Shown here: positions 13,904-35,758 of the stretch, in pieces
Numbering within the stretch: position 1 is the stretch's first letter
Layout: every line of letters begins with the position of its first letter
Source: Pyrinomonadales bacterium
Lineage (GTDB): Bacteria; Acidobacteriota; Blastocatellia; Pyrinomonadales; Pyrinomonadaceae
Reading direction: 5' to 3'
DNA length: 64,000 nucleotides
Assembly (NCBI GenBank): GCA_038237345.1
Contig: JBBRYU010000001.1
Coordinates: 375-64,374 of the forward strand
Translations under genes and position numbers: made by a program
The notes under the pieces: generated by a model
Database searches by the model: none
Told to the model about the DNA's origin: nothing
Seen by the model: the letters and a program-made list of their open reading frames with translations, nothing else

Positions 13904-13905
13904 TT

Positions 13906-16035
13906 TTACTCGAAGTAACTCGCGCCAATGCGCGCGATGCCGTTCGTCGTGCCGAAGTAAACATGCTGCCCGTCGCCCGTCACGCTGAGCACGGTCGGCG
14001 CGGGCAGTTCCGCTTGCAGATGCGTCCACTTTTGCGTGTGTAAATCCAGAACCCACACGCCATCGAGCGTGCCCGCATAGAGCCGCGCGCCATCGCTCCA
14101 CAGGGCGTTTGGGTTGACGACGAACCCGCCGGTCTCGGCCGCGAACGGACGCAACTCGCCCGCCGGCATCAACTCAAATACGCCGCCGCCATACGTGCCG
14201 ATGAACAGGCGCGGCCCCGCAGCGCAGAGGGCCGTCACCCAGTTGTGCGTGAGTTTGGAGTTAGCGTCCGTGAAGACGCGCACGACGCGCCCCGCCGCGA
14301 CTTCGGCCAGCCCGCCGAGCGTGCCGACGAAGATCGTGCGGCCGCGCGGCAACACTGCATAGAGGCTGTTGCTCGGCAACCCTTGCACGGTCGTCAATCC
14401 CCGCCAACGCCCTTGCGCGCCCAAGCTAAGACCGCGACTCGTCGCGCAGACCAACTCCGCACTCTGCCCATGATGCGCCGCGCCCGCCGCAGTTGTTTGC
14501 CCCGCGTTCCCTTGCGCGGGCAGCACAGCGACGCCGGTGATGGCATTGCTCAACAGGCCATCGCTTGTCGTCAGGCTTGTCTCATGCAACGCCGCATCGA
14601 AGTGCGCGAGTCCCTGTGCGGTGGCCACATGCATCGTGTTCGTGTCGGCCGCGAATGAGAGCGCGTTGATCTCGCGCGCCGTTTCTGTGGCCAGATGTGT
14701 GAGCCGGCGACCGTCGGGCGCGAGCAGGTCTATGCCGGCGCGGAAACTGCCGGCCCAGAGACGACCCGCACCGTCGAGCGCGAGCGCGGCGACCGTGTTA
14801 CTCGCCGGCCCGCGTTGTTGCGCGTCGGGCTGCATGAACGGCATGAGCGCGAAGAGGGCGCAAGTTGTGCGCGCTGAACTAGAGTTTGTCGTGTCAGACG
14901 TGTTGTCATTTGTGCGCCAGACGCCAACGCTCGTGAGCAGCCAGAATTGATTATCAAGCGCGAGCAGGCGGCAATCAGTCGAACTTTCATTCGCCGCTTG
15001 CGCGTCGCGCCATATGATAGGTTGGAGTTGCGGCCCGCGCGTCGCGTGCTCTGCCAACACGAACAATTTGCCGTCGTCCTGACAGAGCAGCACGCGCCCG
15101 CCGAGTTGTTGCAGGCTGGCGAGCGACGGCAGCGTGGCGATGAGGCGAAACGGCTGCGCCCGCGCCTGTTCAGCCGCTAACAACTCATCGACACGCGCGA
15201 CCGCGAGTCCGAAATCGGTAGCGACCAGCACGCGCGCGTCGTCCGCCGCTATGCCAACCACGCGGGCAGAGGGCAGCCCCGCAGCCGTCGTGAAGTGCAG
15301 CCAACGTCCGGCCTCGCGCACCCACAGTCCGTCGGCGTATGTGCCGACGTAGAGCCGCGCGCCCGCGCGCATGAGACAGTTGATCGCTGTCAGCCGGCGC
15401 TCGTCCGCGCCCGCTTTCAGTTCTGTGAACTGCCGCCCGTCGAACTCGATGAGACCGCCCGCGAACGTGCCGATGAGCAACCGGCCCACATCGTCGAGCA
15501 GCGCGGTGATCGCCTGCGGCTGGCGGTCGGGCCAACGATAACTCTCGAAGTGTGCGCCGTCGAAGGTGACGAGACCTTGCGTGCGCGTGCCGATGAACAG
15601 CTTGTCATGCCACACGATCAGGCTCGTGAGATCGCTTTCGGGCAGACCGTCCAGCACCGTGTAGTGATGCACGGGCGCGCCTGTCTGCGTCAATTCGAGC
15701 AGCCCGCCGTCGGTCGCGGCGAAGTACGAATCGTGCAGCCGCGCGACGGCGCGGACACGTTGTGTGCTTTGCCAGATTTGCAACTCCGGCCGGTTGAGCG
15801 TCAGGTGTGGTTTTATCTCAAACGGAATGACGTGCTGTCGCTCAAGCCGCGCCCGTTCGTCGGCGAGGCGCGCACGCGCATCTCGCTGCACGCGCCCCGC
15901 GCCGAACAGACAGACGAGCGGCAACAAAACTGCCAGCCCGACGAGCAGCCTGCGCTGGCGCACACACGCGGCACGCGTGCGCGCTATGCTCCCGCGCAGA
16001 GCAAGAGTGTACGCAGGCAAACTCGCCCGGCTCAT
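13906..16035 (-). CDS. membrane-anchored beta-propeller repeat protein (two-component-regulator-propeller-like repeats)
   Basis: ORF 13906-16320. Recurring motifs of the type GLPSNSLYAV, GGLIEFDG, TLDGVWVLD and YFGTTNGIARI occur at roughly 45-aa intervals. A TM helix (LLVGLAVLLPLVCLFGAG) follows the proposed start MSRASLPAY (ATG 16035). The start is uncertain. Confidence 0.75.
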   Translation of the reverse strand: MSRASLPAYTLALRGSIARTRAACVRQRRLLVGLAVLLPLVCLFGAGRVQRDARARLADERARLERQHVIPFEIKPHLTLNRPELQIWQSTQRVRAVARLHDSYFAATDGGLLELTQTGAPVHHYTVLDGLPESDLTSLIVWHDKLFIGTRTQGLVTFDGAHFESYRWPDRQPQAITALLDDVGRLLIGTFAGGLIEFDGRQFTELKAGADERRLTAINCLMRAGARLYVGTYADGLWVREAGRWLHFTTAAGLPSARVVGIAADDARVLVATDFGLAVARVDELLAAEQARAQPFRLIATLPSLASLQQLGGRVLLCQDDGKLFVLAEHATRGPQLQPIIWRDAQAANESSTDCRLLALDNQFWLLTSVGVWRTNDNTSDTTNSSSARTTCALFALMPFMQPDAQQRGPASNTVAALALDGAGRLWAGSFRAGIDLLAPDGRRLTHLATETAREINALSFAADTNTMHVATAQGLAHFDAALHETSLTTSDGLLSNAITGVAVLPAQGNAGQTTAAGAAHHGQSAELVCATSRGLSLGAQGRWRGLTTVQGLPSNSLYAVLPRGRTIFVGTLGGLAEVAAGRVVRVFTDANSKLTHNWVTALCAAGPRLFIGTYGGGVFELMPAGELRPFAAETGGFVVNPNALWSDGARLYAGTLDGVWVLDLHTQKWTHLQAELPAPTVLSVTGDGQHVYFGTTNGIARIGASYFE

Positions 16036-16519
16036 TCGTTCCAGTCGTGGTCGTTCGTTGTCGCGCACGTCTTGGTCTATGTTGTTCGTCTGTACATGGC
16101 GGCCCGTTAACCGCATCACGCGGATTATCAGTGCGGAGCGGGCTAAGGCGACACGTGCCGCCGGACAGTGCGCGCTCCGAGTCAGTACGGCGCGCAGCCC
16201 GGCGTGTTGAACAGCTACGCATGTGGGTTGGCACACGCGCGCGTATGTGGCTAGACACAGTCTGAGCTTGCTATGACCGAGTTGCAGAGCACGCAGTCGG
16301 TTTACCATGGCGCGGAACAAATTATCTGTCTTCGCGTCCGGGGCATCTACGAGTACTCATACGTGGCGCGGGCCGCCACGCCGGGCCGTATCATTGTGTC
16401 CCCGCCCAAAGCCGAAGAGATGTACAATCCTGAAACCTTCGGGCGCGGCGCGACCGACCGCGTGATCGTTGAATGACTGATGAGCAAGAGCGCGACCTCG
16501 CCGCGCGCAGACCAAGCCA

Positions 16520-17554
16520 ATGACTGACTCAACCTCACTCTTTTCCGCGCTGCTCGCGCAAAAGCAACAAGCTTACGGCAAGGCTTTGGAGTACGCCTGC
16601 GCCGCCGCACTGCTCGACTGGCTGCATGCGCACGGGACGCTAAGCTCGCTCGCCGACTCCGATGCGGCGCAGACTGCCCGCCGCCGCTACGACGCGCTCG
16701 CGCCCGAGACACGCGCCAAATACGACCTCGGCGCGACGGCCGGCGTGTGCCTGCTCGCGCGCCTTGAGCCTGTGTTGCAAACGCCCGCCGCGAGTGATCG
16801 CTTCACGTTGCGCATACAAGCGGACGCGCAGGGCGAAGCGGGCGATGTGCGCGATGTCGTCGCGGCGAACGAGCGCGGATGGACGCTCGGCGTCTCGGTC
16901 AAGCACAACAACGACGTGGCGAAGAACCCGCGCCTCGCGCGTACGCTCGACTTCTGTCAACACTGGACGACGCGCCCCTGCGACGCCGCCTACTTCGCCG
17001 CGATCAAGCCTGTCTTCACCGAACTGGAACAACTCGCCACCGTCGGCGCGCACTGGAGTTCGCTCAATCTCACCGAACAGGAGAAGGCCGCGCGCTTCTA
17101 TCGCCCCGTCATGACGGCGCTCGCGGCGCAACTCGAACGCCTCGCGCGCCAGCACGCGGATGCGCCCGCCGCCCTCACCGCCTACTTCCTCGGCCGCCCG
17201 GACTTCTACAAACTGATCGTCTCCATGCCCGACCGCACGACGACCGTGCAAGCATTCTCTTTCGCGGGCACGCTCGGCCGCGGCGTAAGCATTGAAAATC
17301 AAAGCGCAGTCAAACAGTCGCCAGACACAGACAAGCCGGCTGTCAACATCGCCCGCCTGTCCTTGCCCGGCAAGCTGAACATCGTCGCATTCAAACCACG
17401 TTCCGCCAACACCATCTTGCTGACCTTTGATCAAGGTTGGGCGTTCTCCCTGCGCCTGCACAATGCCTCGTCACACGTCGAAGCAAGTCTCAAGCTCGAC
17501 GTGCGGCTGACCAGTGCGCCGCCCGAGCTCGTTAAGTTGCAAGTACGGTGGTAG
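16520..17554 (+). CDS. possible HaeIII-family (PD-(D/E)xK) restriction endonuclease; solitary
   Basis: 344-aa ORF. From memory, the N-terminal GKALEYACAAAL and the core GDVRDVVAANERGWTLGVSVKHNNDVAKNPRL resemble the HaeIII-family signature (D...S/ExK followed by KHN..A.K..RL). This is not verified by alignment. Confidence 0.5.
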   Translation: MTDSTSLFSALLAQKQQAYGKALEYACAAALLDWLHAHGTLSSLADSDAAQTARRRYDALAPETRAKYDLGATAGVCLLARLEPVLQTPAASDRFTLRIQADAQGEAGDVRDVVAANERGWTLGVSVKHNNDVAKNPRLARTLDFCQHWTTRPCDAAYFAAIKPVFTELEQLATVGAHWSSLNLTEQEKAARFYRPVMTALAAQLERLARQHADAPAALTAYFLGRPDFYKLIVSMPDRTTTVQAFSFAGTLGRGVSIENQSAVKQSPDTDKPAVNIARLSLPGKLNIVAFKPRSANTILLTFDQGWAFSLRLHNASSHVEASLKLDVRLTSAPPELVKLQVRW

Positions 17555-23018: not shown

Positions 23019-24500
23019 TCAATAGATATTGAAGTTGTAGACGACGGAGACGTACTGCGAGACTTTGTGCCCGTCCTTCTCGGCCGGCGTGAACTGTATT
23101 TTGCGCGCCGCTTCAATCGCCTTCTCCGTCAACCCATCAGGCAGACGCTTAATGGGCACGATGCTCAGCACCTGCCCCGACGCGGACAAGACCATGCGCA
23201 ACGTGACCTCGCCCGTGACGTTGTTCTTGCGCGCTTCTTCCGTAAACTGCGGCTCCGGCTTCGCCGTGATGACCGCGCGGCGGGTCACGTCATGCACGGT
23301 GAATACTGTTTTTGCGTAGTCTATCGTGCCGCCGCGATCACCGGGGCCGCCGCCGCCGGGTTTCTTCGGGCCGCCGCCTGTGTTCCCGCCCTCGCCGGGG
23401 CCATAGCCGTTACCATTGCCCGTACCGACGCCGCCACCATTGCCGTCGCCGATACCGTTGCCGTCACCTGAGCCGGATGACAACTCGGTGGCTTGCGATT
23501 TCGGATCGCCGTATGGCAGCGCGCGTGCGTCGGGCGGAAAGAGTACCGGATCGCCTTCGAGCGTGGCCGGCGTCGGCAAGTGCGCGTTTAGTATGATCGG
23601 CGGCTTCGGGTCGGGCGCTACGAGTGGCGGCTGCCACGTGGCCGGCGGCAGTTTGCCCTGAATCGCCGGCAGCGCCTCGTGTCGTCCGCCACTACCGCCG
23701 CCGCCCGGCCGCTCCTTGTTCTGCAACGAGCCGCCGCCCGCGCCGTGACTCGCCATCCCGGCCGGCCCCGCCTCCTGCTTCTGCTCCGGCGGAATAGTAT
23801 TGACGACCCAACCCGTCACTTCCAAACCTTCGTTGGCATTGCCGGCGAGCGTCGGATACGCCTTGTGATAACCCTCAAGCGCGACGACCGCACCGACAAG
23901 TGTTAAGACAACGACGAGCGCGGTCACGAGTCCGTAGGCAACATTCTCGCGCGCCAACCCGCGCCGCAACAACAAGCTGTAACCAACGGCCGTGCGCTGC
24001 GTGAACCCGAACGGATCACGCTTGAACTCCGGCCACGTCAAACGCGACGCCGCCGTGACCGCGCTCATCTCAGTCGTCAAACGCGCGAGCAGCCCCGCTT
24101 CCGGCAACAATGTTAACTGATACTCCGCCCGCGCGGATGTGCCTGCGACAATCACCGGTGCCCAGTCGTCGCCAATCATTTCAGCAACCGACATATTCAA
24201 TGCCGGCATGGGCGCGCGTGCGCCGTCCGTTTGGTCAGACCGCGCTTCAGCCAAGACGGCCGCCAGCATGTCGGGTTGTTGCTCTGTGACGAGCGGCAGT
24301 CCGTCCACCGGACAGAAACGGAACTGCGGTGCAAATTCTTCATAGCACATCGGACATCGCTTCATCTCTTCTTCCTCCTCCGCGCGCCGGCTCACCTGCC
24401 GGCGATATGAATCCAGCACGCGCGAGCGCAGCGCATCGGGCGCTGGTCTAGCGCGCCAACTCAGCAGCAATAGCTTCAATGCCTGCTCTTCGCTCATCAT
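23019..24500 (-). CDS. TonB C-terminal domain protein with an N-terminal zinc-ribbon and one TM helix; putative anti-sigma partner
   Basis: Start overlaps the sigma gene stop as ATGA. CPMCYEEF..FCPVDG zinc-ribbon, TM helix VAYGLVTALVVVLTLVGAVVAL, a Gly/Asn/Pro-rich linker, and a C-terminal TonB_C-like segment (AKPEPQFTEEARKNNVTGEVTLRMVLSASGQV). Confidence 0.8.
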   Translation of the reverse strand: MMSEEQALKLLLLSWRARPAPDALRSRVLDSYRRQVSRRAEEEEEMKRCPMCYEEFAPQFRFCPVDGLPLVTEQQPDMLAAVLAEARSDQTDGARAPMPALNMSVAEMIGDDWAPVIVAGTSARAEYQLTLLPEAGLLARLTTEMSAVTAASRLTWPEFKRDPFGFTQRTAVGYSLLLRRGLARENVAYGLVTALVVVLTLVGAVVALEGYHKAYPTLAGNANEGLEVTGWVVNTIPPEQKQEAGPAGMASHGAGGGSLQNKERPGGGGSGGRHEALPAIQGKLPPATWQPPLVAPDPKPPIILNAHLPTPATLEGDPVLFPPDARALPYGDPKSQATELSSGSGDGNGIGDGNGGGVGTGNGNGYGPGEGGNTGGGPKKPGGGGPGDRGGTIDYAKTVFTVHDVTRRAVITAKPEPQFTEEARKNNVTGEVTLRMVLSASGQVLSIVPIKRLPDGLTEKAIEAARKIQFTPAEKDGHKVSQYVSVVYNFNIY

Positions 24501-25108
24501 TGCTTCAACTCCCGCGCGCTCGGCCCGCTCGCCAGATACGGCGCGAGTTGCCGCCGTAAGTTTTCCCGCGCACGCGCGAGCCGCGCCTTGACCGTGCCTA
24601 CGTCCGCGCCGACCACCGCGGCGATCTCCGCCAGACTCAACTCTTCATACTCGAACAGCACGAGCGCCTCGCGTTGCAACGGCGACAAATTCATCACCGC
24701 GCGTTGGACGACTTCGGCCAACTCGGCCGCGAGCAGTTGGCGCAAAGGCTGTTGCGCTTCCTGCGTGTGCGGCTCGTCATGCAAATCATCGAGCGCGATC
24801 TCGACGCGCGGGTGGCGAAACTGTTTGAGCGCGAGATTGCGCGCCGCCGCGTAGAGATACGTGCGCAGACTGGCGCGCGTCGGATCGAAGCTGTCGGGTC
24901 GTTTGAGCAAACTGAGAAAGCAATCGTGCGTTACGTCTTCGGCGCGCGTCGCCGAGCCGAGCAAGCGATAGGCGAAGCGATAGATTGCATCGCGGTAACG
25001 CTCGTAGAGCAAGAGGAACGCGGCCTCTTCGCCCCGGCGCGCGCGCTCGATGAGCGCCTCGTCTGTCGTCTGATCGGGCAACCTGCTTCGGCTCGTTTCC
25101 GGCCCCAC
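24497..25108 (-). CDS. ECF-type RNA polymerase sigma-70 factor
   Basis: Region 2 (LLYERYRDAIYRFAYRLLGSATRAEDVTHDCFL) and region 4 (LSPLQREALVLFEYEELSLAEIAAVVGADVGTVKARLARAR). Confidence 0.9.
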   Translation of the reverse strand: MGPETSRSRLPDQTTDEALIERARRGEEAAFLLLYERYRDAIYRFAYRLLGSATRAEDVTHDCFLSLLKRPDSFDPTRASLRTYLYAAARNLALKQFRHPRVEIALDDLHDEPHTQEAQQPLRQLLAAELAEVVQRAVMNLSPLQREALVLFEYEELSLAEIAAVVGADVGTVKARLARARENLRRQLAPYLASGPSARELKQ

Positions 25109-25324
25109 GGCTTGCTCACGGAGGTATTACCGCGACGATGGCAAAAGAGACGCTGCGGAGGCCAAATATTTTGCGTCGCTCTGCCACCGATGTTGTCGCT
25201 TGGAAGCCGACATACTCCGACGCGGTTGCATGAACGCGAGCCCCGGCGCGAAAAATAAATATCCGCCGTGTGGAAACCTGACCCGAACAAGCGCGCATCA
25301 CAGCGCCAATTCGGAGGTAGCCCC

Positions 25325-28300
25325 ATGCGCCGTAGATGGCTTGCCCTTCTACTCTGTCTCGCAGTGTGTCTCGTCTGCGCCGTCCGCTTCGTCGCCGCCG
25401 ATGACAACACGCTGCGCGTCAACGAAACCGCCACGCAGATTCTCTTCAGCGCCGAGCAAACGAGCGTCACGCTCGCCGTTGCGAACGACACGGGCCGCGC
25501 GTTGGGCGTGCGCCTGCGTGTCGAGTTGCTCGACACGCACGACGTTGTGCGCGCCGCCGCTACGCGCGCCGAACAACTAAGGGCCGGCGCGAATCGCGTG
25601 CCCGTCGTGCTCAAGCCGTCGCTGCTCGCCACGCTCAACGACAGCGAGCGCAAACTGATCTTGTGGTATCGCCTGCGCTACACCGTCACGGCCGATACCG
25701 GCACGCCCGTGCTGGCCGCGGGCGTCATCTCCGTCAATCAACTCGGCACGCCCGATCTGTTCGAGTTGCACGTCGCCGCGCCTGAGTACGCGCGCGAGGG
25801 ACAAACTATCCGCGCGCGTGTCCGGGCCGCGCACCCGCTGACGGGGCAACCCGCGCCCGGCGTCAACGTCGCCGGCGAGTTCACCTTCGACGGCCCCGCC
25901 GGCGACGATGTGGAGTTGAAGGCGGCGAGCGTGACCGACCCGGAAGGTTATGCCGCACTCAACTTCGTGTTGCCGCGCAACGTGGCTGCTGATGAAGGCG
26001 AGTTACAGATCACGGCGCGGCGCGGCGACTTCGCGCAAGCGGCCGCGCAGGACATACACTTCGATCATCACGCGCAAATTCTAATCAGCACCGACAAGCC
26101 GCTCTATCAACCGGGGCAGACCTTGCACGTCCGCGCGCTCGTCTTCACACCGGCCAAGCGCGCGCTCGCCGCCACCGAAGCGATGCTAACGATCAGCGAT
26201 CCGGAGGACAAGACCGTCTTTCGCGCGCCGCTTAAAACGTCGCGCTTCGGCGTCGCCAGCGTTGACTGGACGCTGCCGGAGAACACACGCCTCGGCGATT
26301 ACCAACTCAACGTGAAGATCGAAGACGGCCGCTACGAAGACTCCGAGAATCGGGCGACGATTCGCATCAGCCGCTACGACTTGCCTAACTTCGCCGTGAA
26401 CGTGAAGCCCGACCGGCCTTATTACCTGCCGGGGCAAAACGCGGCGGAGGTCGAAGTGCGCGCCGATTATTTATTTGGTGAACCGGTCAAGCGCGGGCAC
26501 GTGCGCGTCGTGCGCGAGACCGGGCGCAAGTGGAATTATCGCGAACAGAAGTGGGACATTGATGAGGCGGAAAAGTGGGAAGGCGAGACGGACGACGCGG
26601 GTCGCTTCGTCGCGCACGTCAAGCTAACAGCCGCGCACGAAGATTTTGCCGACGAGAATTATTCCCGCTTCCGCGATCTCTCCTACGCCGCCTACTTCAC
26701 CGACCCGACCACCAATCGCACAGAGCAACGCCGCTTCGACCTGCGCCTGACGCACGACGCCATACACGTCTACGTGATCGAAGGGCACGAGCGGCAAGCG
26801 CAGGATTTGCCGTTCGAGTTCTACGTCTCGACCTCTTACCCCGACGGTTCGCCGGCCGAGTGCGCCGTCGCGCTGCGCCAACCTGTGGCCGAAGCGGACG
26901 AGCAGGACAAAGACAAGCAAGCGGCGGACAGTGCGCCCGCGTTGCGTACCGTGCGCACGAACAAATATGGCGTAGCAAAGGTGACAGGTCTCGTGCTGCC
27001 GCGCCGTGTGGCAGCAGACGCAGAGGATGTCAGTCTCCGTTTCGTGGCGCGCGACGACAAAGGCATGACGGGGCGGCACACGCAACAGTTCTATCCGACG
27101 AATAATCCGGTCATCCGCGTCGCGACCAACAAGGCGCTCTACCGGCCGGGCGAGCCGTTGGCGGTCGAGATCACGGCCAACCGGCCGGAGTTGAAGTTGG
27201 TCGTGGACGTGGCGCGCGACTTCAAAATGCTGCGCTCCGAGTTCGTGCAACTGCACGACGGCCGCGCTACGTTGACCTTGCCCACCAACGCTGAATTTCA
27301 CGACGAGATCACCGTCGCGGCTTACACGTTCGCGCGCTTGAGCTATGACGACAACGATGACGCTTACGTGAAAGGCTGGCGCACAGTCCTCTTCCCGCGC
27401 AGGCATGATCTGCAACTCGACATGAAGTTGAGCAAAGACACGTATCAGCCGGGCGAGGCGGCGCACGCCGACTTCCGTGTGCGCGACGGCGCGGGGCGCG
27501 CGACCGAGAGCGCGCTCGGCATCGTCGTTTTCGACAAAGCGGTGGAAGAGCGCGCCCGCACCGACGGCGAGTTCGGCACGAACAGCTTCTACAATCTCTA
27601 TCGCTACTGGCACGGCACGAACGCGCTCGCCGGCATCGCGCGCGGCGATCTCAACCGGCTCGATCTCGCGCAACCCTTGCCTGCCGGTCTCGATCTCGTT
27701 GCCGAGATACTGCTGCGCGATGAAGGTCTCGCGCCGCAACTATTCGGCGGGCTTGATCTCAACGTGAACGAGAGCGCAGTCTTCGACAAACTCGTGGCGG
27801 CCCAACTCGCCGCGCTACGGCAGATACTCGAAGGGCAATACGTCGCGCAGGCGCTCTATCCGGCGGACGCGGCGGCCATGCAGCGTCTGCTGTCAACGTG
27901 GGGCTTCGACTTCGCGGCGTTGCGCGATCCGTGGGGCACGCCCTTTCGCGTGCGCTTCGCGGTCGCGCGCGAGAACGACGTGCTCGAAATAGTCAGCGCG
28001 GGCGCGGACAAACGTTTCGACACGGCCGATGATTTCGTCGCCACGCGCCTCCTGCGCCCCTACTTTCGTTTCACCGGCGAAGCGATCAATCGCGCCGTCG
28101 CACGCTTCCACGCGCGCACCGGCGCATACATCCGCGACGCCGCGACGCTCAAGAGCGAGTTGGCCCGCGAAGGCATAAACCTCGACGCGCTGCGCGATCC
28201 GTGGGGCCAGCCTTATCGTTTAAGCTTCAACGCGGCGGGCAAACTCTATCTCGTCGGCGTGGAGAGCGACGGCCCCAACGGCAAACTCGATCCCACGAAT

Positions 28301-31300
28301 GACCCGCACGCCGACGACTTCCACCTCTGGACGGCGCAGATCGATTACAGCACAGACCTGCGCGCCCGGCTCGACACGGCGCTCGCGCGCCACTTCGATG
28401 TGACCGCGCGCTTCCCGCAAGACAAGCCGGAGTTCGAGGCCGCGCTTGCACGCGCCGGTCTGGCCGCAAGCGCGCTCAGCGATCCGTGGGGTCATCCCTT
28501 CTACGTCACGTTCCGCCAGAACGCGCGCTACGCCGACCGCGTTGTCGTCCAGTCTTACGCACAATACGGGCAGCAACCGAAAGAGCGCACGGAGATCACG
28601 CCCGTCACCCAGACCGTCAACTTCATAAACCTGCGTAGCGCCGGCCCCGACGGCCAAGAAGGCACTTGGGACGACTTCGACGTGGCCACCATCTTTCGCA
28701 TCATCACCGAGCAAGGGGCGCAGGACAAGACGCCGCAGCCCGCACGCACGCCTGTCCAACTGACCGGCGGCAGTGGCGCGATCCACGGCACAATCACCGA
28801 TCCGGCCGGCGGGGCTGTTCCGGGCGCAACCGTGCAGGCGACGCACAAGTACAGCGGCCAAGTTTTCAGCGCGACGAGCAACGACGACGGTACGTATCTT
28901 GTGCGCAATCTGCCGGCCGGTTTTTATTCGGTCGCCGTTTCGTCGCCGGGCTTCAAGAACACGGTCATCACGGAAGTGCCCGTGCAGGCGGCGAACCTGA
29001 CGCAACTCGACGTCAGGCTCGAAGTCGGCTCGGTCTCTGAGGCCGTGACAGTGATGGGCGGGCAGAGCGGACTCGTAGAGACTTCAAGTACGTCGATCTC
29101 CAGCCGCCAGATAACCGAGTTGCCGGTGAATAGCAGAAATTACGTTAACCTTGCAATGCTCAAGCCGGGTATACATGTCGTGACCAAGCCCGGCGCAGAG
29201 ACCGCAACGCCGCGCCTACGCGAATACTTTCCCGAAACGCTGCTCTGGCAGCCGTCGCTCGAAACTGATCGCCGCGGGCGCGCACAACTCGACTTCAAGC
29301 TGGCCGATAACATCACGACTTGGAAGTTGTCCGTCTTCGGCTCGACTGCCGATGGCGAGGTCGGCGCGGTCGAGCGCGAGGTGCGCGCCTTCCAACCGTT
29401 CTTCGTCGAGCATGATCCGCCGCGCGTCTTGACCGAGGGCGACGAGATCATGCTGCCCGTCGTGCTGCGCAACTATCTCGCACGCGCGCAGCAAGTCGCC
29501 GTGCGGATGCAGCCCGCCGACTGGTTCACGCTGCTCACCGCCGCCGAGTTGCGTGCGCAAGTTCCTGCGGGCGATGCGACGCGCGAGATTTTTGGCTTCC
29601 GCACCGTCGCATCTGTCAAAGACGGCAAGCAGCGCGTCACCGCCATCGGCGCGGACGCGCGCGACGCGATTGAAAAGCCGATCAGCGTTCACCCGGACGG
29701 CGAAGAGATCGCGCAGACAAGCGCGCAACTGCTTGGCGCGAACGGCGTGCTCGAAACGGACGTGCCGGCGAATGCCATCCCGCGCTCCGCGCACGCAGAG
29801 TTGAAGCTCTATCCGAATTTGCTGACGCACGTGATCGAAAGCGTCGAAGCGATCCTTGTGCGCCCGCATGGTTGCGCCGAGCAGACGCTCTCTTCGACGT
29901 ATCCGAGCCTGCTCGTCTTGCGCCATTACAAATTGCTGCATGGCAACGCCGCGCAGTTGCCGCCCATCGCCGTCAAGGCGGATAAATATTTGCGCGCGGG
30001 CTACGACCGCTTGCTCTCTTACCGCGCGCCCGGCGGCGGCTTCTCTTACTGGGGACGTGGTGAGGCGGATGTCGCGCTCACCGCCTACGCCGTCCGCTTT
30101 CTCGAAGACGCGCGCGAGTTGCTGCCGATTGACGAAGACGCGCTGCAAGCGGCGCGCACGTGGCTCGTCGCGCAACAACAAAAGGACGGTAGCTGGCCCG
30201 CTTACGAGGGGGACAAGAAGCGCTCCGACCGGCGCACGCTGCTGCTCACGGGTTACGTTGCCCGCGTGTTAGCACGCCACAAGGACGAAACGGCCGCCAA
30301 CAAAACGCAGACGCAAACACCCGCGCCAACGCCAACGGCCGGCAATGATCCCGCGCCTGCGCCGCAGCCGACCGCGTTGCAACGCGCGCTCGACTTTCTC
30401 GCGCCGCATCTCGACGAGATTGACGAGCCTTATTTTATCGCGGCTTACACCATCGCGGCCGTAGATGCCAATGCGCCGCCTGCCGCCATCGCCAAAGCCA
30501 CGGCGCGTCTGCGCACGCTCGCCAGACGCGAAGCGGATGGAAGCTATTGGGCGCTTGAGACGAACACGCCGTTCTACGGTTGGGGTCTCGCCGGGCGCAT
30601 CGAGACGACCGCGCTGGCCGTACAGGCGCTCACGAAAGCAGTAGGCAGTGGACAGGCAGAACAAGGCGACTCGCTGCCCGTTGATGATCTGCTCGCGCGT
30701 AGCACTATCTTCCTGTTGCGCAATAAGGATCGCTATGGCGTCTGGCTCTCGACACAGGCGACCGTCAACGTGCTCGATGCGCTCGTCGCGCTCTCCCCCA
30801 CACGCGGCGCGGGCACAACAGACGGCCCTGCGGCCGTCGTGCCCGCGTCGCGTGCCGCCACCGAACCGGCTGAAGTCTTCGTCAACAATCAACGCGCCGG
30901 CACGTTGCTCTTGCCCGCAGACGAGCGGCTTGATGCGCCGCTCACGCTCGACCTCACGCGCTTTCTCACGCCGGGGCAGAACCGGATCGAGATCAAACGC
31001 ACCGGCACGGGCAAAGCTTTCGCGCAGGTGGTCACGACCTACTACGTGCCGTGGCCGCAGTCTGCGGGCGCGGCGGCAACGCACCATGCCGCGCCGCAGT
31101 CGGCGAGCGCGCTCCGCCTTGCGATCAACTTCGACAAAGTTAAAGCGATGACGGGTGAAGAGGTCGCGTGTCGCGTTGAGGCCGAGCGCGTCGGCTTTCA
31201 CGGTTACGGGATGCTGCTCGCGGAGATCGGTCTGCCGCCGGGCGCGGACGTGGATCGCGCGTCGCTTGAGCGGGCGATGAAAGAGTCGGGCTGGGAATTG

Positions 31301-31519
31301 AGTAGCTACGACGTGCTGCCGGATCGCCTCGTCGTCTATCTCTGGCCGCGCGCGGGCGGCACGCAGTTCACATTCACCTTCCGCCCGCGCTACGGGCTGA
31401 GCGCGCAGACCGCGCCGTCAGTGCTATACGACTATTACAACCCGGAGGCGCGCACCATCTTAGCGCCCACGAAGTTCAACTTTAACGAACGCGCACGGAT
31501 AGAACAGGCGCAGCAGTAG
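25325..31519 (+). CDS. alpha-2-macroglobulin family protein (2064 aa) with an intact thioester motif, three GspG-like inserts and a CarboxypepD_reg-like domain
   Basis: Start at MRRRWLALLLCLAVCLVCA (ATG 25325, GGAGG upstream). MG-domain-like N-terminal half. Three DPWG-containing units at about 27850-28680. IHGTITDPAGGAVPGATVQA...DDGTYLVRNLPAGFYSVAVSSPGFK at about 28780-29010. The thioester box GCAEQT has its CAEQ codons at 29873-29884. Confidence 0.85.
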   Translation: MRRRWLALLLCLAVCLVCAVRFVAADDNTLRVNETATQILFSAEQTSVTLAVANDTGRALGVRLRVELLDTHDVVRAAATRAEQLRAGANRVPVVLKPSLLATLNDSERKLILWYRLRYTVTADTGTPVLAAGVISVNQLGTPDLFELHVAAPEYAREGQTIRARVRAAHPLTGQPAPGVNVAGEFTFDGPAGDDVELKAASVTDPEGYAALNFVLPRNVAADEGELQITARRGDFAQAAAQDIHFDHHAQILISTDKPLYQPGQTLHVRALVFTPAKRALAATEAMLTISDPEDKTVFRAPLKTSRFGVASVDWTLPENTRLGDYQLNVKIEDGRYEDSENRATIRISRYDLPNFAVNVKPDRPYYLPGQNAAEVEVRADYLFGEPVKRGHVRVVRETGRKWNYREQKWDIDEAEKWEGETDDAGRFVAHVKLTAAHEDFADENYSRFRDLSYAAYFTDPTTNRTEQRRFDLRLTHDAIHVYVIEGHERQAQDLPFEFYVSTSYPDGSPAECAVALRQPVAEADEQDKDKQAADSAPALRTVRTNKYGVAKVTGLVLPRRVAADAEDVSLRFVARDDKGMTGRHTQQFYPTNNPVIRVATNKALYRPGEPLAVEITANRPELKLVVDVARDFKMLRSEFVQLHDGRATLTLPTNAEFHDEITVAAYTFARLSYDDNDDAYVKGWRTVLFPRRHDLQLDMKLSKDTYQPGEAAHADFRVRDGAGRATESALGIVVFDKAVEERARTDGEFGTNSFYNLYRYWHGTNALAGIARGDLNRLDLAQPLPAGLDLVAEILLRDEGLAPQLFGGLDLNVNESAVFDKLVAAQLAALRQILEGQYVAQALYPADAAAMQRLLSTWGFDFAALRDPWGTPFRVRFAVARENDVLEIVSAGADKRFDTADDFVATRLLRPYFRFTGEAINRAVARFHARTGAYIRDAATLKSELAREGINLDALRDPWGQPYRLSFNAAGKLYLVGVESDGPNGKLDPTNDPHADDFHLWTAQIDYSTDLRARLDTALARHFDVTARFPQDKPEFEAALARAGLAASALSDPWGHPFYVTFRQNARYADRVVVQSYAQYGQQPKERTEITPVTQTVNFINLRSAGPDGQEGTWDDFDVATIFRIITEQGAQDKTPQPARTPVQLTGGSGAIHGTITDPAGGAVPGATVQATHKYSGQVFSATSNDDGTYLVRNLPAGFYSVAVSSPGFKNTVITEVPVQAANLTQLDVRLEVGSVSEAVTVMGGQSGLVETSSTSISSRQITELPVNSRNYVNLAMLKPGIHVVTKPGAETATPRLREYFPETLLWQPSLETDRRGRAQLDFKLADNITTWKLSVFGSTADGEVGAVEREVRAFQPFFVEHDPPRVLTEGDEIMLPVVLRNYLARAQQVAVRMQPADWFTLLTAAELRAQVPAGDATREIFGFRTVASVKDGKQRVTAIGADARDAIEKPISVHPDGEEIAQTSAQLLGANGVLETDVPANAIPRSAHAELKLYPNLLTHVIESVEAILVRPHGCAEQTLSSTYPSLLVLRHYKLLHGNAAQLPPIAVKADKYLRAGYDRLLSYRAPGGGFSYWGRGEADVALTAYAVRFLEDARELLPIDEDALQAARTWLVAQQQKDGSWPAYEGDKKRSDRRTLLLTGYVARVLARHKDETAANKTQTQTPAPTPTAGNDPAPAPQPTALQRALDFLAPHLDEIDEPYFIAAYTIAAVDANAPPAAIAKATARLRTLARREADGSYWALETNTPFYGWGLAGRIETTALAVQALTKAVGSGQAEQGDSLPVDDLLARSTIFLLRNKDRYGVWLSTQATVNVLDALVALSPTRGAGTTDGPAAVVPASRAATEPAEVFVNNQRAGTLLLPADERLDAPLTLDLTRFLTPGQNRIEIKRTGTGKAFAQVVTTYYVPWPQSAGAAATHHAAPQSASALRLAINFDKVKAMTGEEVACRVEAERVGFHGYGMLLAEIGLPPGADVDRASLERAMKESGWELSSYDVLPDRLVVYLWPRAGGTQFTFTFRPRYGLSAQTAPSVLYDYYNPEARTILAPTKFNFNERARIEQAQQ

Positions 31520-31580
31520 CTCAACCACGTGACAGAGTCAAGTCTAAGAAGCTGTTTGCAACAGTCCCGTGAGGGACGGA

Positions 31581-31707
31581 ATGTTTATAGTCTAAGGCGC
31601 TTGGTTAGCAACTTAGCTCCGTAGGAGCGGCATGTCCATATTCCGCTCCTACGGAGCTTGGTAGTTAGCAGGCCGGTCGGCTACAAACATCTCGCTCCTA
31701 CGGAGCT
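31581..31707. repeat. cluster of three copies of a short palindromic unit (core GCTCCGTAGGAGC / GCTCCTACGGAGC)
   Basis: agctccgtaggagcgg (31615-31630) and ccgctcctacggagct (31643-31658) form a perfect 16-bp stem. A third copy, cgctcctacggagct, lies at 31693-31707 and is preceded by ctacaaacat. The inverted atgtttatag is at 31581-31590. A separate gtccc-gtga-gggac hairpin is at 31564-31577. Confidence 0.5.
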
Positions 31708-31789
31708 AAGAATTTGCACATATCTTCTAAATTTGGCCTGGGCTGATTGACACTGTTAAGCTAAGCCCAATCTCAAAAGGAGGTGTTGC

Positions 31790-32818
31790 ATGCGTCTGAC
31801 CGAGATGGTCGCCTGCGCGGGTTGAGCGGCGAAACTCGCGCCGAGCGATCTCGCCCACGTGCTGGGCGGCTTGCACATTCCAAAGTCTGCCAATCTGCTT
31901 GTCGGCATCGAGACGGCGGACGATGCCGGCGTGTATCTGCTGCGCGACGACCTCGCGCTCGTGCAGACCGTGGACTTCTTTACGCCGATTGTTGACGACC
32001 CCTACGACTACGGCCGCATCGCCGCGCTCAACTCGATCAACGACGTGTGGGCCATGGGCGGCACGCCGATTACCGCGCTCGCTGTCACTTGCTTCCCGAA
32101 AAAAGGTCTCGACTTTGCGATCCTCGGCGACATCATGCGCGGCGGCTTGGACGTGTTGACGGAACACGGCGTCGCCCTCCTCGGCGGGCATAGCGTGGAC
32201 GACCAGCAGATCATGTTCGGCTACGCCGTCACCGGCACGATCCACCCGCAACGGATCATTACTAATCGCGCCGCGCAAGTCGGCGACGTGATCATTTTGA
32301 CGAAGCCCATCGGCACGGGCGTCATCTCGACCGGCATCAAATTCGGCAAGGCGAGTGAGCCGGTAATGCGCGCGTCGCTCGACACGATGCTGCTGGCCGG
32401 GCGTGAGGCGGCGGCGGCGATGCAAGAGTTCGGCGCGCACGCGGCGACTGATGTGACGGGCTTCGCGCTGCTCGGTCATGCGTGGGAGTTAGCGCATGCC
32501 AGCAACGTCACCCTTGAACTTGAGGCGGCGCGCGTGCCGCTCATCAACGGCGCGTTGGCGTTAGCCGCGCAAGGGTTGTTGACGAGTGGCGACAAGACGA
32601 ATCGGCGCTATGTCGGCGACGACGTGCGGTTGGGTGATGAGATCAGCCCGGCCGTAGGCAACCTGCTCTTCGACCCGCAGACGGCCGGCGGCCTTTTGAT
32701 CTCCGTCGCGCCGGAGCGCGCCGACGCACTGCTCGCGCGCCTCAGTGAGCGTTACAAGGACGCAAGTATCATCGGGCGTGCGGTCGCGCGCGGCACGCAT
32801 GCCATCGTAGTCAAATAA
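31790..32818 (+). CDS. selD: selenide, water dikinase with an in-frame UGA (selenocysteine) at 31823-31825
   Basis: AAAGGAGG then ATG at 31790. Reads [30 protein letters not shown] and runs in frame into track ORF 31859-32818 (AIR-synthase-like body DDAGVY...[15 protein letters not shown]). The UGA aligns with the catalytic Cys, and a Lys lies at +3 as in the GCGCK loop of E. coli SelD. Confidence 0.85.
31840..31870 (+). other. candidate SECIS-like stem-loop downstream of the selD UGA
   Basis: GCCG/CGGC plus AGCG/UGCU pairing with a GGG bulge and a 12-nt loop, 17-47 nt after the UGA. Found by hand folding only. Confidence 0.3.
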
Positions 32819-33674: not shown

Positions 33675-35507
33675 TTAATCAATGCCCCGCCGGCCGAAAC
33701 TGATAATGTTCCGCCCACGCCCCTTAATTGTTGGCTGCTCCGACAAAACTGACTGGACGACTGCCAGCCGCGCTTGCAGACGCGCTTCCGGCCGCTGAAA
33801 TCTGTCCGCGTCCGCGCGGGCGCGGGCGAAGTCCACGCGCGCGAGCGTCGTCAGCGTCCCGCCGCATTGCTCAATCAGCGAGCGCCACATATAACCGCCC
33901 TGCCCGCGCAACTCGTCCTGCTCAAACTGCTCTTGCCCGAAGCCGTCAACGACGGCCGCCGCCGCTATCAGTTCGTTCAGTTGATCGATCCGCGTTTCCA
34001 CGATCTCGAAGGCGCGGGCCGGCGCGAGCGCCACGTAAGCCTGCGCGATTTGCAGTTGCAGGGAGAACTGTTCCGCGTTCTGCGCCCGCCCGCTCAATAG
34101 GTTGGCCGCTTCGTCCACCAATTGCCGCGCCGCTTGCGGCTCTTTGCCGGCCAACATGCGCGCCAGATTGAGCAAGACGTTCACCCGCTCGTTGAGCGCC
34201 TTGACATGCTCTAACAAATGCAGCGCCCCCTCCACGTCGCCGCGCTGGGCCGCCTGCCAGAGCGCACGCTGTTCGAGGCCGCGCAACATCTGTTCGCGCT
34301 GCGGCTTGTTCTCTACGTGCGTGCGTATGATCTCGCGCGCCCGCTCCAAGCCGCCCTCGTTGAACGCGCGCTCGGCCGCCACTTGATACAGTTGGCCGCG
34401 CATCTCCGGCGGCGCATTCGCGGCGGCTTCGAGTAGCGCATCCACCGACCCTTTCTGCAAAAGCGGTTCATACTGTCGCCACACCGCAGCTTGCGGATTC
34501 ACCACCTGCTCATACTCCGTGATTTGCCGCCGCAGCGTCGCTGCCTGCGTGGGCGCATAACGCTCCACATCCGGCAACACCTGCTGCAACGTCGAGATCA
34601 GGCCATAGAGATTGCCTGTCTGTCGTTGCGCGGGCGATGCGTTGTGCAGCGCCTTCATCATGGCGTTAACCAACTCGCGGCGCATTTGCTCGTCTACGTG
34701 CAATTGGCGCGGGTTAGGCAGGTTGACGCTCTGCTGCCCGGCGTTCGCCGGCTCGGCCGTGCGTGTCGCTTGCAACAGATAGGCCGCCACGTTGGTCGCT
34801 TCGCCTTCGCGCAGGAAGTCTGCGGCGCGCAGTTTCTGTGCGATCTCGCCCGCGAGTGTGTCGGCCGCTGCGGGACTCTTCTGTCGCAACTGCTCCAGCA
34901 CCCCCGCCAAACCGTATGACATCCCCCGCTGCAAAGTCTCTTCGGCCAGTCGGAGCGCTTGTTGCGGATCGGCGGCGCTGGTCTGTTCCGCGAGATTCAA
35001 CTCAAGCGCTAAGTCCGGATCGGGCTGTTGATTATATGCGCCGGGCTGAACGGGCGGCGGCGGTTGGCGCGTGGCGCGCAGGAAATCGAGCGCGAGTTTC
35101 GGATCGCGCCGGGCGACGAACTGGAGCAACTGTTGGCGCAACTGCGCGGGCGTGGAGATCAGATTGTAGTACTGCGGATCGTCGCTGGCGACGGCCTGCA
35201 TCATGGCGGTCAGATTGTTCATCGCCATGCTGAAGAGTTCGCGCGCACGCGCCTTGTCGCGCGGCCACAGCAACTCGGCGCTAGTCGCCTGCAAGCGGAC
35301 GCGATTCTCCGGCAGCTTGAGACTCTGCGCCTCTGTAATGATCTCGTCGAGCAGCGCGAGTGCCTGCGGCTCAAGTTCTTTGTCCACTGCGGGGCGCGGC
35401 TCAGCGCGGCGCGTGGGGGTCAGTTTCTCCGCACTCTGACCCATAACAGTCGCCGCGAGGAGCGCGAGAGAGAGCAGGCTGGCGGTCAGCAGCTTGGCCG
35501 GGTTCAT
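33675..35507 (-). CDS. hypothetical secreted alpha-helical repeat protein (610 aa)
   Basis: ORF 33675-35564. The start is taken at MNPAKLLTASLLSLALLAATVMGQS (signal peptide-like). No domain recognised. Confidence 0.7.
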   Translation of the reverse strand: MNPAKLLTASLLSLALLAATVMGQSAEKLTPTRRAEPRPAVDKELEPQALALLDEIITEAQSLKLPENRVRLQATSAELLWPRDKARARELFSMAMNNLTAMMQAVASDDPQYYNLISTPAQLRQQLLQFVARRDPKLALDFLRATRQPPPPVQPGAYNQQPDPDLALELNLAEQTSAADPQQALRLAEETLQRGMSYGLAGVLEQLRQKSPAAADTLAGEIAQKLRAADFLREGEATNVAAYLLQATRTAEPANAGQQSVNLPNPRQLHVDEQMRRELVNAMMKALHNASPAQRQTGNLYGLISTLQQVLPDVERYAPTQAATLRRQITEYEQVVNPQAAVWRQYEPLLQKGSVDALLEAAANAPPEMRGQLYQVAAERAFNEGGLERAREIIRTHVENKPQREQMLRGLEQRALWQAAQRGDVEGALHLLEHVKALNERVNVLLNLARMLAGKEPQAARQLVDEAANLLSGRAQNAEQFSLQLQIAQAYVALAPARAFEIVETRIDQLNELIAAAAVVDGFGQEQFEQDELRGQGGYMWRSLIEQCGGTLTTLARVDFARARADADRFQRPEARLQARLAVVQSVLSEQPTIKGRGRNIISFGRRGID

Positions 35508-35758
35508 CACCACCTCACGTTGATAAAAACTGTTCGGACGGTTTGCAGGGGCACGAAACATCAACGCCGTCGGACGCGAAAACTTGCGCCACCGTAGATG
35601 CGTTGTGCGTTGTGTGCTTCTCTGCGATGCGCGGAACTGCGTCGGAGGATGCTTGTCCGGCAGCGCCGGTGCGCCAACTTCTATGCGCCGGGTAACTTGC
35701 TGCTTGCCTGTAGGGGCGAATGCTCTGTCCCTACAAAGCTCAATACTTTGCTACGCGC

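Follow-up and report, generated by a model that had tools for sequence, protein, structure and literature searches.

We analysed a 64,000-nucleotide (nt) stretch of DNA (hereafter, the window) from a Pyrinomonadales bacterium of the phylum Acidobacteriota (assembly GCA_038237345.1, contig JBBRYU010000001.1). We focused on a single gene that encodes a thioester protein of the alpha-2-macroglobulin (A2M) type. The open reading frame spans positions 25268-31519 of the forward (+) strand. The likely start codon is the first ATG, at 25325, which comes after a GGAGG sequence and opens a product of 2,064 amino acids (aa) starting MRRRWLALLLCLAVCLVCAVRFVAADD. The gene and its parts are as follows.

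25325..31519 (+): complete gene, stop codon included, for an A2M/thioester-containing protein (TEP)-type thioester protein (open reading frame, Pfam, homologues)
25325..25399 (+): Sec type-I signal peptide of the AxA type, MRRRWLALLLCLAVCLVCAVRFVAA, with DD after the predicted cleavage site
25400..27556 (+): N-terminal macroglobulin (MG) domains up to the first half of MG6 (MG2, MG3, MG4-like, A2M_BRD; Pfam, alignment)
27557..27769 (+): lead-in to the insert, aa 745-815, partly helical, modelled with mixed confidence
27770..28060 (+): GspG-like module 1 (M1), aa 816-912, two helices and a three-stranded sheet
28061..28345 (+): GspG-like module 2 (M2), aa 913-1007, with a longer calcium loop
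28346..28717 (+): GspG-like module 3 (M3), aa 1008-1131, with a beta-hairpin extension of ~29 aa
28775..29023 (+): CarboxypepD_reg beta-sandwich at aa 1151-1233, with homology to the N-terminal extension of TonB-dependent-receptor-like outer-membrane proteins from Acidobacteriota
29030..29206 (+): probable bait proper, aa 1236-1294, disordered in the model, hypervariable and rich in insertions and deletions
29039..29059 (+): TonB-box-like motif EAVTVMG (family consensus ETVTVTA) at the start of the disordered stretch, a presumed TonB box; candidate TonB_C-binding peptide VSEAVTVMGG; VGSVSEAVTVMGG
29207..29254 (+): near-invariant TPRLREYFPETLLWQP, aa 1295-1310, aligning with the alpha'-NT or post-bait start of C3, A2M and CD109
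29831..30787 (+): thioester domain (TED), TED_complement, with GCAEQ at 29870-29884
31208..31456 (+): C-terminal A2M receptor-binding-type (MG8) domain (Pfam)

Scanning the protein with Pfam identified MG2, MG3, A2M_BRD (aa 598-740) and A2M (aa 1305-1395), all above cut-off. The same scan placed TED_complement at aa 1503-1821 (105 bits) and A2M_recep at aa 1962-2044. T2SSG matched aa 826-902 (27.2 bits; cut-off 21). CarboxypepD_reg matched aa 1153-1233 (nt 28781-29023; 71.6 bits), where a preliminary description of this DNA had placed such a sandwich at about 28780-29010. No ANATO domain, and no Plug, TonB_dep_Rec or OMP_b-brl_4 domain, was found by Pfam. No NCBIfam model reached its cut-off.

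The thioester motif GCAEQ occupies aa 1516-1520. Its CAEQ codons lie at 29873-29884, exactly as first described, and the open reading frame and Pfam domains bear out the earlier call of an A2M with an intact thioester at 25325-31519. A word-indexed search returned at least 120 full-length relatives (~2,000 aa, 50-76% identical). GC[AG]EQ is kept in all 120 of these close homologues, and GCxEQ in 81 of 83 full-length representatives at 50% identity. A canonical lipobox ([LVI][ASTVI][GAS]C) was sought in the first 40 aa of the 120 homologues and found in none. This, together with the AxA-type signal, leads us to reject a lipoprotein anchor. The protein belongs to the A2M/TEP/complement thioester-protein superfamily. 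We conclude that it is a Sec-exported, non-lipidated thioester protein with the canonical MG1-8, CUB and TED scaffold and an intact CxEQ motif.

A cassette at the bait position

The closest solved structures by sequence are CD109, human A2M, TEP1, C4, C3 and C5 (E values 6e-39 to 1e-27). Escherichia coli YfhM is a much weaker match (E 3.5e-10). Residue 1292 of the query aligns with residue 725 of the human A2M precursor, which we take to be the end of its bait. Residue 1299 falls on residue 16 of the C3b alpha' chain. Since A2M_BRD ends at aa 740, these alignments show aa ~745-1294 (~550 aa) to be one insertion between the halves of MG6, at the bait/anaphylatoxin (ANA) position. The modules had been described as lying between the MG domains and the thioester region. 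This is true, and their location can now be given more exactly as the bait/ANA position of MG6.

The cassette consists, in order, of three GspG-like modules, the CarboxypepD_reg sandwich, a disordered hypervariable stretch and an invariant TPRLREYFPETL segment. In the alignment of 120 homologues, the modules and the sandwich are gap-free and 45-56% identical to the query. Conversely, aa 1240-1293 have a mean identity of 23% with many insertions and deletions, and are rich in S, V, T, A and G. The disordered stretch ranges from 41 to 91 aa in length across homologues. The 19 residues after aa 1293 (TPRLREYFPETLLWQP...) are 85% identical. In an AlphaFold2 model, the predicted local distance difference test (pLDDT) score is below 30 over aa 1236-1304. 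The alignment and the model suggest that the true bait is probably the disordered, hypervariable segment of aa 1236-1294, right before the invariant TPRLREYFPETL.

Like this protein, human A2M, CD109 and insect TEP1 are built on the MG scaffold, have CxEQ in their TED, end in a receptor-binding-type domain and carry a bait between the MG6 halves. Their bait is short (~40-100 aa) and mostly flexible, whereas here ~490 aa of folded domains precede the disordered bait in a bacterial, Sec-exported protein. Complement C3, C4 and C5 resemble it in having a folded domain at the same topological position, followed by a scissile region and a conserved alpha'-NT-like segment. In complement the folded domain is the anaphylatoxin helix bundle, but here it is GspG-like modules plus a beta-sandwich. 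The query has no furin-type chain processing. Hence, unlike in C3, C4 and C5, the cassette would not be released.

Pseudopilin-derived modules and a receptor-like segment

DPWG motifs lie at aa 868, 958 and 1053 (nt 27926, 28196 and 28481). The modules that contain them are ~97, 95 and 124 aa long. An earlier figure of about 93 aa each is about right for M1 and M2. M3 departs from it because of a ~29-aa insertion between strands, which is apparent when M3 is aligned to the other modules using hhalign. Pairwise comparison of the module family profiles by hhalign gave probabilities of 99.4-99.6%. The isolated insert scored 36.3 bits with Pfam T2SSG, over two stretches, and M1 alone scored 21.4 bits, at the cut-off. 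Single-sequence phmmer with the insert found nothing in the PDB, and a profile of 43 modules was needed for matches. Against all PDB sequences, the best eight matches to this profile were all GspG, PulG, XcpT or EpsG: 1t92 (E 2.5e-4), 3g20, 29jd, 2kep, 5wda, 3gn9, 3fu1 and 4lw9. Most of these alignments span helix and sheet, with a deletion of ~12 residues in the intervening (alpha3-beta1) loop.

AlphaFold2 models each module as a helix, a short helix and three strands (pLDDT 85-93; 90.8 for M1 modelled alone). Searching the PDB with the M1 model using Foldseek gave enterohaemorrhagic E. coli GspG (3g20) at the top, with two chains, a probability of 0.98-0.99 and a TM-score of 0.58-0.66. XcpT (2kep; probability 0.28) and then a type IV pilin came next. 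With the 803-aa multi-domain model (aa 598-1400), Foldseek returned only MG scaffolds (C3, C4, C5 and CD109).

The calcium ligands of PulG and OutG are D117, S/T122, D125 and possibly D124 (PMC13081927). Profile alignment maps the PulG positions to D895, T900, D902 and D903 of M1. The M3 counterparts, by module homology, are D1109, T1114, D1116 and D1117, and the spacing is identical to that of the PulG ligands. Across homologues, the M1 and M3 positions are Asp in 120 of 120 and Thr or Ser in 115-120 of 120. M2 retains the ligand Asp residues in a loop that is 5 aa longer. Given these residues, calcium probably stabilises the cassette. The N-terminal helix of M2 is the best conserved among the three modules; identity over aa 901-950 is ~67%, level with the core domains.

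Pfam detected no N_methyl domain at the modules, and T2SSG profile coverage starts at position ~15. The modules retain alpha1-C, the C-terminal half of the pilin helix, and lack the prepilin leader and the hydrophobic alpha1-N. Hence, the earlier statement that the pilin helix is missing holds for alpha1-N and the leader but not for alpha1-C. GspG, PulG and XcpT (PF08334) have in common with the modules alpha1-C, a short helix, an antiparallel sheet, DPWG-x-PY and ligand positions D-x4-[TS]-x-D-D. Unlike these proteins, the modules have an alpha3-beta1 loop ~12 aa shorter, have neither leader nor alpha1-N, and are tandem internal domains of a soluble protein. On the basis of the Pfam T2SSG match, the profile matches in the PDB, the Foldseek result and the ligand spacing in M1 and M3, we conclude that the modules descend from the major pseudopilin GspG. 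The proposal of three tandem GspG-like modules is thus upheld by hidden Markov model, profile-to-PDB and structure-based tests, and the modules are mutually homologous by hhalign. Since the leader and alpha1-N are absent, they are pseudopilin-derived domains and not pseudopilins.

The segment that follows the modules points to a different source. In a single-target comparison, aa 1147-1283 align with aa 72-210 of a 1,434-aa protein encoded at a related locus, L066 (E 1e-21). That protein combines CarboxypepD_reg with OMP_b-brl_4 and is of the acidobacterial TonB-dependent-receptor-like class. The alignment extends ~50 residues beyond CarboxypepD_reg, through the ETVTVTA-like strand. A loose pattern for this strand is present in 112 of 120 homologues and a strict TonB-box pattern in 44 of 120. 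Many homologues have an LP-x-NGRN...L-x-PG motif after it. In SusC-like and related receptors, the TonB box sits exactly between the N-terminal extension and the plug. CarboxypepD_reg-type TonB-dependent receptors (OMP_b-brl_4, SusC-like) likewise have CarboxypepD_reg and then an ETVTVTA-like strand. Unlike them, the query has no plug or 22-strand barrel, and its segment is embedded in an A2M and hypervariable past the motif. Part of the bait thus appears, from the alignment, to have been taken from the TonB-box end of an outer-membrane receptor. By analogy with such receptors, the ETVTVTA-like motif might bind a TonB_C domain. No TonB-dependent receptor is encoded within the window; the comparator comes from the related locus L066.

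Distribution and gene neighbourhood

The relatives listed by the word-indexed search, whose sources are given as Pyrinomonadaceae, Blastocatellia or Acidobacteriota, are named only "MG2 domain-containing protein" or "hypothetical". The thioester and the spacing of ~90-aa modules are kept in all 120. We also searched the module profile against 1.84 billion representatives of clusters at 50% identity. At E<=1e-30 it matched 262 clusters, and at E<=1e-3 the number rose to 1,511. Three modules are present in 141 of the best 150 representatives and four modules in another five; the remaining four representatives are fragments with two. Those with four modules are P0121, P0146, P0153, P0161 and P0163. 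Relatives are encoded by 478 stretches of GTDB species genomes. The top 80 of these all span aa 598-1400, cassette included, and are nearly all from Acidobacteriota, mostly Blastocatellia. The closest relatives are from metagenome-assembled genomes of an Acidobacteriota bacterium (84% identity) and a Pyrinomonadales bacterium (76%). In literature on macroglobulins with pseudopilins, GspG or Acidobacteria, we found no description of the architecture, and we found no curated family. The preliminary description had raised the prospect that the architecture is common and already described; common it is, and a description was not found. The architecture is therefore common in Blastocatellia, annotated automatically by domain, and apparently undescribed.

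Upstream of the A2M gene lie an extracytoplasmic function (ECF) sigma factor gene, its partner gene and two promoter-like sites.

24497..25108 (-): ECF sigma factor, 203 aa, divergent from and upstream of the A2M gene
23019..24500 (-): candidate anti-sigma/TonB-like membrane protein, 493 aa, whose start overlaps the sigma stop codon (translationally coupled)
25275..25302 (+): promoter-like site of the ECF type, AACC-N16-GCATCACA, lying ~22 nt before the A2M ATG and immediately ahead of the GGAGG ribosome-binding site
25200..25227 (-): its promoter-like counterpart, AACC-N16-GCTTCCAA, directed towards the ECF sigma gene

The 493-aa protein combines a zinc ribbon (CxxC...CPxDG), a single transmembrane segment, a linker rich in Gly and Pro, and a periplasmic TonB_C domain at its C-terminus. 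We regard it as a candidate anti-sigma factor whose TonB-type domain would act as the sensor. Downstream of the A2M gene, which is monocistronic, are an AIR-synthase-like gene and a methyltransferase gene. We found no pbpC among the neighbours in the window and no penicillin-binding protein (PBP) among the recurrent neighbours scanned in 83 related loci. On the basis of the gene neighbours in the window and the related loci, we reject an operon of the pbpC or mag type.

The sigma/TonB_C pair is present in about 18 of the 83 related loci, even where the A2M is 45-52% identical. In these ECF-group loci, the site on the A2M side reads AACC-N16-GCATCACA, ~20 nt 5' of GGAGG, and that on the sigma side AACC-N16-GC(A/T)(A/T)CC(A)A. 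The back-to-back sites are kept in ~18 related loci despite proteins that are just 50-60% identical. In the window, AACC-N16-GCWTCMMA has two matches and no others; the pattern was derived from these two sites, so the count speaks for specificity but carries no statistical weight. A promoter of the sigma-70 type was not matched anywhere in 25000-32000. We infer from the paired sites that the ECF sigma factor may autoregulate and drive the A2M gene. The A2M gene had been described as sitting alone, without pbpC and divergent from an ECF sigma/TonB-C pair. These neighbours are as described, but the gene is probably not alone in regulatory terms, as it has a promoter-like motif in common with the sigma gene.

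Since the ECF/TonB_C neighbourhood occurs in only ~18 of 83 loci, we reject the idea that it is universal in the family. The TonB-box motif was considered as a mark of the ECF-linked group and also rejected; it is equally present in all groups. About 30 of the 83 loci instead have, upstream, a sensor kinase of ~1,100 aa (Reg_prop/HisKA_3/HATPase_c) together with a response regulator of the LuxR type (e.g. L021:1436-4858 and L028:835-1710). The kinase-linked loci have a distinct conserved sigma-70-like upstream region, TTTGCAT-N-GATAAT plus a CTCCCCAGGC box. In about 12 of the 83, a CarboxypepD_reg-ankyrin protein is encoded directly downstream of the A2M orthologue. This protein of ~570-600 aa, with many ankyrin repeats, is encoded ~130 nt downstream on the same strand (L003:12137-13846, L031:12364-14172) and is absent from the window.

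Several other genes of the window were also noted. A 629-aa open reading frame at 33675-35564 (-) has no Pfam match, and a ~610-aa homologue recurs downstream in ~11 related loci. At 3474-11459 (-), a 2,661-aa open reading frame has a TPR repeat near its N-terminus as its sole Pfam match. An 880-aa VIT, VWA and Big_13 protein with inter-alpha-trypsin-inhibitor-like architecture is encoded at 11459-14101 (-), and an 804-aa Reg_prop protein comes next at 13906-16320 (-). These last two calls overlap by ~200 nt, so the start of one has probably been misplaced. The gene at 16520-17554 (+) encodes a restriction endonuclease of the HaeIII type (Pfam RE_HaeIII, E 3.5e-73).

Bacterial Type I A2Ms (E. 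coli YfhM/ECAM, Salmonella Sa-A2M) are likewise thioester-containing, envelope-located macroglobulins. They are presumed to neutralise proteases that reach the periplasm (PMC5764988). Type I proteins of the yfhM-pbpC kind have a lipoprotein signal and an operon with pbpC (PBP1c), whereas the present family has neither and carries the extra cassette. The Type II A2M, MagD, lacks a thioester and is encoded in the six-gene mag operon; here, in contrast, the thioester is present and the gene monocistronic. The query fails the defining features of both recognised bacterial types.

Possible functions of the cassette

We consider it probable that the protein is a monomer-type thioester protease trap whose bait has been rebuilt as the ~550-aa cassette. 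The cassette would be an ANA-like stopper upstream of the scissile bait, and the trap would here be ECF-driven. This interpretation combines the alignments and models with the likeness to complement. Briefly, an attacking endopeptidase would cut the disordered aa ~1236-1294. The cut would free the invariant alpha'-NT-like segment and allow an A2M/C3-type rearrangement. The thioester would then be exposed and the protease cross-linked or caged. The folded cassette would not be the substrate. Placed upstream of the scissile region, it would be bulky and resistant to proteases, like ANA in C3. It would hold the native state, present the bait and stay on the N-terminal fragment after cleavage. Expression, here and in ~18 related species, would be driven by the divergent ECF sigma factor.

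Several observations weigh against this interpretation. We infer the stopper role of the cassette solely by analogy with ANA. Both the short ETVTVTA motif, conserved inside a disordered region, and the strongly conserved M2 helix are explained by binding no less well than by a passive spacer. With regard to the modules themselves, M2 (12.7 bits) and M3 (16.0 bits) alone fall under the T2SSG cut-off, and the Foldseek E values for M1 are weak (0.07-0.1). The predicted template modelling (pTM) score of the multi-domain model is only 0.43. With regard to regulation, the promoter pattern statistics are circular, the pattern having been built from the sites found, and about 65 of the 83 related loci have no ECF pair.

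The binding features raise the possibility, which we hold to be distinctly less probable, that the cassette serves for docking. The modules, the TonB-box-like strand or both would hold the soluble trap at an envelope structure, for example TonB, a TonB_C protein, type II secretion system (T2SS) or type IV pilus machinery, or an outer-membrane protein. Such a tether would replace the lipid anchor of enterobacterial A2Ms, and proteolysis would still be sensed at the disordered bait. Consistent with this are the lack of a lipobox in all 120 homologues, the M2 helix conserved as core domains are, and a TonB_C protein adjoining in ~18 of 83 loci. The ETVTVTA-type motif, moreover, is kept in 112 of 120 within a disordered and otherwise hypervariable stretch, and the homology to the CarboxypepD_reg plus OMP_b-brl_4 N-terminus runs past the domain into it (E 1e-21). 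However, the motif may be mere inheritance from the donor outer-membrane protein, and no neighbourhood partner is conserved across the family. The modules also lack ~12 residues of the alpha3-beta1 loop, which carries secretion specificity in OutG and PulG (PMC13081927), and alpha1-N, which is required for entry into the pilus.

Two further readings seem very unlikely to us. In one, three headless pseudopilin domains would mimic the surface of a pseudopilus and recruit exoproteases of the T2SS type, either the cell's own, prematurely active, or a competitor's, giving the trap target selectivity. Proteins secreted by the T2SS fold in the periplasm and are in many cases proteases, which counts for this idea, as do the specific GspG ancestry and the retained, surface-exposed calcium loop. 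Yet most of the invariant residues (DPW and the calcium site) have a structural role, and there is no T2SS gene in the neighbourhood. Because the loop that sets substrate specificity in OutG and PulG is deleted from the modules (PMC13081927), such a decoy is less likely than docking. Least probable of all, in our estimation, is that the protein is not an inhibitor but a complement/TEP-like tagging or adhesion factor. Its thioester would attach to the cell's own envelope, to prey or competitor cells, or to polymers, and the cassette would be releasable or signalling. By sequence, its nearer relatives are indeed CD109, TEP1 and complement rather than E. coli YfhM, and a structured domain lies ahead of the cleavage region as in C3, C4 and C5. 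Against this, there is no second processing site to release the cassette, and a hypervariable bait is a hallmark of broad-spectrum traps. Inspection by eye also found no conserved His at the position of the C3 catalytic His, which favours hydroxyl attack.

A protease trap might in addition double as a sensor, although we regard this as improbable. The TonB-box-like strand would dock by beta-augmentation on the TonB_C domain of the 23019-24500 product, or on TonB where that neighbour is absent. Cleavage of the bait would alter the contact and free the ECF sigma factor. The matched divergent promoters would then fire and more trap would be made. If true, this would be a protease-alarm circuit made from TonB-dependent receptor, pseudopilus and complement-like parts.

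Two types of bacterial macroglobulin are recognised (PMC5764988), and their study has been almost confined to enterobacteria and Pseudomonas. The family described here would be a third, widespread type, nearer to metazoan TEPs than the known bacterial types are. It has a structured multi-domain cassette where complement proteins hold the anaphylatoxin domain. It is also a clear case of reuse of pseudopilin globular domains, calcium-ligand positions included, inside a soluble protein, for which we found no described precedent. If the cassette controls activation or localisation, the family would offer an independent natural experiment on thioester-protein latency. If the ECF link is real, it would provide a protease-sensing circuit amenable to study in a soil phylum that has received little attention.

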